From the NCBI RefSeq assembly GCF_016903815.1, contig NZ_CP069973.1: DNA of 64,000 nt; one strand, 5' to 3'. This document shows positions 40,323 through 41,184 of this stretch, in pieces. This DNA is from Escherichia coli. Its GTDB lineage: Bacteria > Pseudomonadota > Gammaproteobacteria > Enterobacterales > Enterobacteriaceae. Within the stretch, counting starts at the first letter, position 1. The number at the start of each line of letters is the position of its first letter. The notes under the pieces are model-generated. The model was not told where the DNA came from. It was given only the letters and a program-made list of their open reading frames with translations, and did not search any database. A program made the translations under genes and the position numbers.

Positions 40323-40772
40323 TTATTCTTTTTCTTCATTAAAACAAGCGCGTAAACGTCGATTGGTCAGCAGCCAGATTAACGCCACAATATCCGCCAC
40401 TACCAGCGCCAGCCCGATACCGCTAACGGATTAACCGTTCAGCCACAGCCACGGTTGCCAGCAAAGTAAAACCACCTGCGCCAACAGCAACAGAAAATAG
40501 AGCACATGCCAGATACGGGGAAATGAAGCCCGCCGACCACTCAGCAAAAACGCCAGCACCGCCGGAATGCCGGGAATCAACCCCAGCCAGAAATTATCGT
40601 GATCGGGATAAAACAGATTTAGCAGTGCAGTACCCTGCTCGCGCGACGCACCGGCAATGACAAACAGCACCCAGGTTCGCGCCTGAAGCAATAGCACAAG
40701 CCAGAAGAGCAAGGGTAAACGCAGGCGACCGTGCGCATCATAATGGACAGGATGAAACTCAGTACTCTTCAT
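40323..40772 (-). pseudogene. yfeZ: inner-membrane protein YfeZ interrupted by in-frame TAA (40431-40433); 113 codons before and 35 after
   Basis: ORF track gives 115-aa ORF 40431-40778 ending WLWLNG*; same frame continues SVSGIGLALVVADIVALIWLLTNRRLRACFNEEKE* to 40323; combined length from third Met equals the 149 aa I recall for K-12 YfeZ. Confidence 0.6.
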
Positions 40773-41184
40773 CTTCAATCAAACGCTTACCCAAACTCAG
40801 CACGTCGGCGTGTTCATATCCCAGGCGTTCATACATTCCGAGCACCATGTCGTTATCTTCCGGCACGTTGATCTGAATTTTCGGGCAGCCGCGAGCAATC
40901 AGCTTTTTCTCCAACCGATTAAGCAACGCATTGGCAATCCCACGCCCACGAAACTCTGGATGCACGCCAAGATAATAAGCAGACCCGCGATGCCCGTCAT
41001 AACCGCCCATCACCGTTCCGACCACTTCACCGTTTACCTCAGCGACCAGAAACAAACTGACGTCATGGTTCATCTTACGCTCGATGTCCATTTCCGGATC
41101 GTTCCACGGACGCAGCAAGTCGCAACGCTCCCAAAGGGTGATGACCTCTTCGAAATCTTCCTGGCGAAATACGCGTATCTCCAT
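40759..41184 (-). CDS. ypeA: GNAT-family N-acetyltransferase YpeA
   Basis: ORF 40759-41295; likely start [26 protein letters not shown] (141 aa); GNAT motif; 3' end overlaps yfeZ start. Confidence 0.92.

Follow-up and report, generated by a model that had tools for sequence, protein, structure and literature searches.

The yfeZ locus and its neighbors

The window analyzed here is a stretch of 64,000 nucleotides of Escherichia coli DNA (contig NZ_CP069973.1), the minus strand of which carries ypeA, yfeZ, and yfeY, in that order of reading. The features on which the argument draws are listed below by window position, in the direction of transcription.

41219..41247, minus strand: sigma-70 promoter-like sequence TTGGCT-17-CATAAT upstream of ypeA, found by consensus scan
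40759..41184, minus strand: ypeA (GNAT acetyltransferase), intact, upstream of yfeZ (Pfam Acetyltransf_1, E 1.9e-21)
40323..40772, minus strand: complete yfeZ frame, now a pseudogene, 149 codons plus stop, collinear with K-12 b2433 and with WP_001296281.1
40434..40772, minus strand: retained coding part of yfeZ, 113 codons, for the N-terminus, TM1, a short helix, TM2, and TM3 (from Pfam and the structural model)
40431..40433, minus strand: premature stop TAA, Glu114 to stop, mutated base 40433, in the context UAAU
40326..40430, minus strand: orphaned 35 codons of yfeZ, for TM4 (118-136) and a basic C-terminal helix (138-144) (from Pfam, invariant columns, and the structural model)
40323..40325, minus strand: original yfeZ stop TAA (from the reading of the strand and the alignment)
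40294..40321, minus strand: putative sigma-E promoter of yfeY, GGCACTT-16 nt-TCCAA, read by eye in the yfeZ-yfeY spacer
39687..40262, minus strand: yfeY (DUF1131, 'RpoE-regulated lipoprotein'), intact (Pfam DUF1131, E 4.8e-84; PGAP name)

The 3' end of ypeA overlaps the start of yfeZ by 14 nt, and on the same strand yfeY follows the normal yfeZ stop after 60 nt. An operon consisting of ypeA and yfeZ, and of these two genes only, has been listed with the same promoter hexamers as those recovered by our scan (PMC3946193). yfeZ is a non-essential gene, and its product is a DUF2919 inner-membrane protein with no assigned function. A literature search for the function of YfeZ returned list mentions only; its ASKA clone was chosen in the first round of a screen for D-alanine export and dropped in the second. 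A sequence search of the PDB with YfeZ gave noise only (E 0.37), and a Foldseek search with the YfeZ model found no PDB structure below E 2.

An in-frame stop codon interrupts yfeZ

Read on the minus strand, the sequence runs ...CTG AAC GGT TAA TCC GTT AGC..., with the TAA at window positions 40433-40431, and this reading bears out an earlier note on this DNA, made from the letters alone, according to which an in-frame TAA ends yfeZ at that point. The note had given the interrupted gene a span of 40323-40778, and the frame of this span stands, but its upstream end does not. Position 40778 belongs to the upstream TTG with which a mechanical ORF of 115 aa (40431..40778) begins in the ORF list, whereas the gene is annotated to start with the ATG at 40772, codon 3 of that ORF, which leaves 113 sense codons and is equivalent to the start used both for K-12 and by PGAP. 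Past the TAA, the yfeZ frame continues for 35 sense codons, SVSGIGLALVVADIVALIWLLTNRRLRACFNEEKE, to a second TAA at 40325-40323, for a total of 113 + 1 + 35 = 149 codons. This is the length of K-12 yfeZ (b2433, 450 nt including the stop), just as the note had stated.

An open run of 35 codons is expected by chance with a probability of (61/64)^35 ~0.19, that is, about one time in five, and it is not significant alone; the open frame by itself therefore proves nothing, and it is homology that supplies the proof. In a DNA alignment, the downstream 35-codon segment is base-for-base the same as the corresponding part of the intact allele of strain 7/2. Against the Pfam DUF2919 profile (PF11143, 146 positions), the part before the stop (113-115 aa) matches positions 1-111 (E 6e-40, 137.4 bits), and the orphaned 35 residues match positions 117-145 when scanned alone (E 6e-4, 20.5 bits). 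The gathering score of the family is 27.2, which the retained part exceeds and which the orphaned segment alone does not reach.

On the plus strand, the same base change gives rise to a further TAA at 40432-40434 (ancestrally TCA), which ends an antisense ORF. This mechanical ORF (40294-40434, plus strand, 46 aa) was dismissed as a gene, having neither a ribosome-binding site nor homology evidence.

The ancestral codon and the age of the mutation

In a four-way DNA alignment, codon 114 is GAA (Glu) in K-12 MG1655 and in strain 7/2 and TAA in the window and in strain 222, and among 20 orthologs the position is occupied by E, D, S, G, or N. Read on the coding strand, the mutation is a G-to-T transversion, which is C to A at position 40433 of the plus strand of the window. 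The single-base nonsense change that had been proposed from the sequence, with GAA to TAA among the examples, is thus what emerges from alignment with K-12 and with the nearest intact allele, the ancestral codon being GAA. Position 40433 is also the sole difference between the window and the intact strain 7/2 over 40,060 bases centered on yfeZ, and the orphaned 3' codons carry zero additional changes. Because these codons are unchanged and the flanking haplotype is identical to that of strain 7/2, the nonsense mutation is, to judge from these alignments, very recent, which agrees with the note's view of a recent event. The locus offers a clean example of a very young pseudogene, with one base altered in 40 kb and no secondary decay.

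That the downstream frame is wholly intact could also be taken to mean that ribosomes pass the stop, through readthrough or with a suppressor tRNA, or that the 3' part is re-initiated, so that a full or split YfeZ would still be made. The sole downstream start, an in-frame GTG at 40400, would give a 25-aa ORF. However, an intact downstream frame is what is expected here in any case, since the mutation is recent. The stop is UAA followed by U, which is reportedly the most efficient termination context in E. coli, and, as the codon is not UGA, selenocysteine recoding is excluded. Programmed recoding is recognized by a UGA with a SECIS element or by a conserved leaky stop context, neither of which is found here; the 60-mer search described below found the stop to be absent from all other lineages, and it is thus not a conserved recoding site. 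The GTG is preceded by ...GCGCTGGTA, without a Shine-Dalgarno-like sequence, and its ORF would encode only part of helix 4; re-initiation at this codon was dismissed, there being no ribosome-binding site or homology evidence for it. Taken together, a bypass of the stop in any of these forms appears extremely improbable.

Distribution of the TAA allele

A 60-base query, placed so that any mismatch drops it below 99% identity, was searched in 5,426 complete E. coli genomes. The exact TAA 60-mer was present in 7 of these, and 4,194 other records matched it with one or two mismatches, those checked reading GAA. The carriers are strains 222 and 103 (urine, Boston), 2779 and 5283 (blood, Houston), and 98210, 98192, and 98224 (blood and urine, Alexandria, Egypt). 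PGAP annotates yfeZ as 'pseudo, internal stop' in all seven, as in the RefSeq pseudogene records A9P13_RS07320 (222), M5T11_RS06780 (5283), and ACI3ML_RS03145 (98192). The exact 113-aa product was found on 115 public contigs in 171 index blocks, with NCBI, ENA, and Logan as sources, and two more assemblies that were examined read GGT TAA TCC at the stop. The same 113-aa product stands in GenBank as GHK16696.1, where it is called 'membrane protein'. The truncation of yfeZ is therefore not new to the databases: RefSeq carries it as pseudogene annotations, and the 113-aa protein has been deposited. The annotation is inconsistent, with PGAP calling a pseudogene and other pipelines depositing a 'membrane protein'.

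These data bear directly on whether the TAA is an error of sequencing, assembly, or polishing in a gene that is truly intact. An isolated base-call error would indeed look like this, with one base differing from hundreds of genomes that are otherwise the same, and the earlier note had allowed for a sense codon at 40431-40433. The same base is, however, present in complete assemblies from three unrelated projects and cities, seven in all, and the exact truncated product has been called on at least 115 other contigs across NCBI, ENA, and Logan. Sequencing error is thereby excluded for practical purposes, and the allele must be inherited; the probability that we would still assign to an error is negligible.

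All seven carriers are the same as the window over 40 kb, save for an extra IS200C copy in strain 2779, and window positions 1-20400 matched perfectly only to the two Houston strains among the matches listed. The region contains an IS200C-type transposase gene, tnpA (152 aa as annotated), at 38034-38492 on the minus strand, inserted between yfeX (about 38692-39591) and pbp4b/yfeW (which ends at 37923), a spacer of only 240 bp in K-12. This insertion is common to the carriers and the intact strain 7/2. The second copy in strain 2779 lies between yfeY and yfeX (21013-21471 of its locus, near window 39600-39690) and is absent from the window and from the other six carriers, including strain 5283 of the same city, and its presence in strain 2779 alone suggests recent IS200 transposition inside the lineage. 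In a further carrier assembly, GCA_016586475.1 (BNEZ01000001.1), yfeX is called in two pieces of 82 and 240 aa (2682-3342), and from locus position 2870 on its sequence no longer stays in register with that of the window, which points to an indel or frameshift; the window has no such change.

Clonal background of the carriers

WCHEC96200, an intact genome that differs from the window around yfeZ at the mutated base alone, has been described as ST405 (PMC5762679). Surprisingly, the same is true of five strains listed as ST617 (MRSN346595, 675SK2, 5CRE51, H8, and WCHEC005784; PMC6392093), which also differ from the window solely at this base around yfeZ. A comparison was also made at an unlinked locus of carrier 5283, a 20-kb region with ydc genes ~1.2 Mb away. 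There, the carriers are 0-1 SNP from WCHEC96200. The neighbors at this distance are WCHEC96200, the remaining carriers, and further genomes of 5.0-5.3 Mb, and the 45 near-identical genomes listed include none of the named ST617 strains. The closeness of the carriers to WCHEC96200 at an unlinked locus, where the named ST617 strains are not among the genomes listed, places them, we infer, in an ST405-like hospital-associated clone, an assignment that follows from near-identity to one documented ST405 genome and not from MLST. The carriers make up 7 of roughly 97 near-identical complete genomes.

The comparison bearing on monophyly covered 40 kb around yfeZ in the seven carriers, window positions 1-20400, and the unlinked 20 kb. 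In the ~80 kb compared between carriers and non-carriers, no derived marker besides the TAA was shared by the carriers, and the SNPs seen were private to the Houston strains. A single origin of the allele would be the parsimonious reading, and the TAA, a single SNP, could be used to recognize a sub-lineage of the ST405-like clone that has turned up in Boston, Houston, and Alexandria. A search by accession number for papers on the carrier genomes gave no relevant match.

Single SNPs aside, window positions 1-20400 and 28000-52999, and probably the whole window, form one haplotype in the ST405 strain WCHEC96200 and in the ST617-listed strains. None of these ST617-listed strains is among the 45 near-identical genomes listed at the unlinked locus, and the pattern suggests that a chromosomal block of at least 45 kb (the gltX-cys-eut region) has been shared via recombination between unrelated clones.

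What the stop removes from YfeZ

Enterobacterial YfeZ homologs are almost uniformly 149 aa long, and the shorter entries listed sit mostly on contigs of 0.5-2 kb. A search of 1.8 billion cluster representatives found 176 relatives, and the full-length distant ones (136-180 aa, 21-57% identity in the alignment) align through query residues 140-148, and in all of them a basic S/N-x-R/K-L-R/K motif comes after a fourth hydrophobic segment. Orthologs that end naturally at ...WLWLNG, which would have made the short form the normal one, are thus not what the family contains. Across 20 enterobacterial orthologs, 48 columns are invariant, and 10 of these lie past residue 114, namely L123, D127, A130, L131, W133, L134, T136, R139, A142, and F144.

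The Kyte-Doolittle hydropathy profile has four peaks, centered at about 31, 70, 97, and 126, the last covering residues 122-129. From the counts of K and R (3 in the N-terminus, 1 in loop 1-2, 3 in loop 2-3, 0 in loop 3-4, and 4 in the C-terminus), the predicted topology is N-in/C-in. An AlphaFold2 model built on a diverse alignment (mean pLDDT 93.7, pTM 0.85) has helices at 21-42, 44-54, 58-80, 85-111, 118-136, and 138-144, with codon 114 in a six-residue loop (112-117) between helices 3 and 4. Both the last hydropathy peak and the model helix at 118-136 follow the stop, and the supposition that the mutation truncates the last predicted TM helix was accordingly well placed. On this model, the stop removes TM4, with its invariant and predicted intramembrane Asp127, plus the basic cytoplasmic tail. 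With TM4 and the tail missing, the C-terminus of the fragment would lie on the wrong, periplasmic side of the membrane according to the predicted topology. Loss of YfeZ function is the most likely consequence.

As to family membership, the retained part scores far above the DUF2919 gathering score, and the gene stands at the orthologous position, with ypeA upstream and overlapping and with yfeY and yfeX downstream. It lacks the full length of ~146-149 aa with TM4 and a basic tail, and for this reason the locus is best described as a pseudogene or truncated allele of DUF2919 and not as a functional member of the family.

It might be argued that the short YfeZ is a natural functional length variant, or that the three-helix fragment keeps or changes its function and was selected in a clinical lineage. 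The allele has persisted and has reached three regions and more than 100 assemblies, and other products of the gene, two with internal tandem duplications (P0128, P0001) and one with an altered N-terminus (P0094), suggest that it tolerates some change; a three-helix fragment could in principle remain stable. However, no ortholog in a full-length context ends near residue 113, helix 4 and the basic tail are kept in all distant members, and the lost segment holds the ten invariant residues, among them the intramembrane Asp. Hitchhiking of a neutral or mildly deleterious mutation would account just as well for its persistence in a clonal drug-resistant lineage. A functional short form is accordingly very unlikely in our estimation.

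The same applies to the more specific proposal that the change from E114 to a stop is a selected loss or change of function of a conserved envelope protein, and not a passenger, in a globally spread multidrug-resistant ST405 sub-lineage. yfeZ sits between cell-wall genes (amiA, pbp4b/yfeW, and murPQ) and the gene for a sigma-E-regulated lipoprotein, and, were the proposal true, the truncation could on account of this setting alter envelope physiology or antibiotic tolerance, and the structural variants that yfeZ shows independently in other E. coli would represent recurrent selection on the gene. Nothing in the data speaks positively for adaptation, and we regard it as improbable to much the same degree as a functional short form.

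Possible effects on neighboring genes

A premature stop may also act on regulation, by uncoupling translation from transcription over the last 105 nt of yfeZ and lowering yfeY through Rho-dependent polarity. yfeY starts on the same strand close behind the yfeZ stop, and ~170 nt of a read-through transcript would be left untranslated. Against such an effect, the operon as listed upstream ends with yfeZ (PMC3946193), PGAP names yfeY an 'RpoE-regulated lipoprotein', and a putative sigma-E-type promoter of yfeY, GGCACTT-16-TCCAA, lies 112 nt downstream of the mutation. This site in the spacer appears to be a close match to the sigma-E consensus, which is said to be GGAACTT-N16-TCnAA. Given the PGAP name and an own putative promoter downstream of the mutation, polarity on yfeY is probably minor, and a regulatory effect of any consequence seems quite unlikely.

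A recent nonsense mutation in a hospital-associated clone

The reading that we prefer, with a probability of roughly 0.92, is that of a genuine, inherited, and very recent nonsense mutation in yfeZ, carried by a sub-lineage that groups with ST405, which most likely ends YfeZ function and leaves the neighboring genes largely unaffected. At the position of the stop, a sense codon is found in orthologs and in the closest alleles. The downstream frame is still homologous to the remainder of the gene, and the change is real and heritable, as its presence in 7 complete genomes from 3 cities and on 115 further contigs attests. On these grounds, yfeZ in this lineage is an ordinary example of a pseudogene by nonsense mutation.

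As a sequence of events, a G-to-T transversion turned codon 114 from GAA into TAA in a sub-lineage of the hospital-associated clone. Ribosomes translating the ypeA-yfeZ mRNA would since then terminate at UAA-U, in the short periplasmic loop that is predicted to follow TM3, and any product would be a fragment of 113 residues and three helices, without TM4 and its Asp127 and without the basic cytoplasmic tail. The C-terminus of this fragment would face the periplasm if the predicted topology holds, and the function of YfeZ would most likely be lost. ypeA lies upstream of the stop and yfeY has what appears to be its own sigma-E promoter, and both would be largely unaffected. The carriers would be natural yfeZ knock-outs with isogenic intact relatives, which makes them a convenient comparison in the search for a phenotype.

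Comparison with known yfeZ alleles

Other, independent variants of yfeZ occur in public E. coli assemblies. These include products with an internal tandem duplication of 27 aa (176 aa in total) and with a tandem duplication of ~86 aa (235 aa), P0128 and P0001 being the tandem-duplicated products. There are also a form of 139 aa with an out-of-frame N-terminus (P0094) and a form of 109 aa present on 15 contigs. Several 'partial' products (among P0123, P0133, and P0135) end at residues 105-121 on large contigs, a hint that contigs break there because the 3' part of the gene carries an insertion or duplication.

K-12 MG1655 yfeZ (b2433, NP_416928.4, 'putative inner membrane protein', 149 aa) occupies the same locus with the same 450-nt frame, and the order ypeA-yfeZ-yfeY-yfeX is common to K-12 and the window. 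The two alleles have 16 nucleotide differences in 450 nt, the stop change included. K-12 has GAA at codon 114 and a full four-helix protein, whereas the window has TAA, and the other amino acid differences between them are five in number (S83T, I87T, H89R, N145Y, and E147V). The PF11143 domain comprises four helices and a basic tail over its 146 positions, whereas the window allele translates profile positions 1-111 only. The PGAP pseudogene records and GHK16696.1 have exactly the sequence of the window allele, with no difference. The nearest intact counterpart is WP_001296281.1 of strain 7/2 (NZ_CP023820.1; DUF2919 domain-containing protein), which lies in a stretch of 40,060 bases like that of the window in all but one. 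At that one base, the first of codon 114, strain 7/2 has G and an intact gene, and the window has T.
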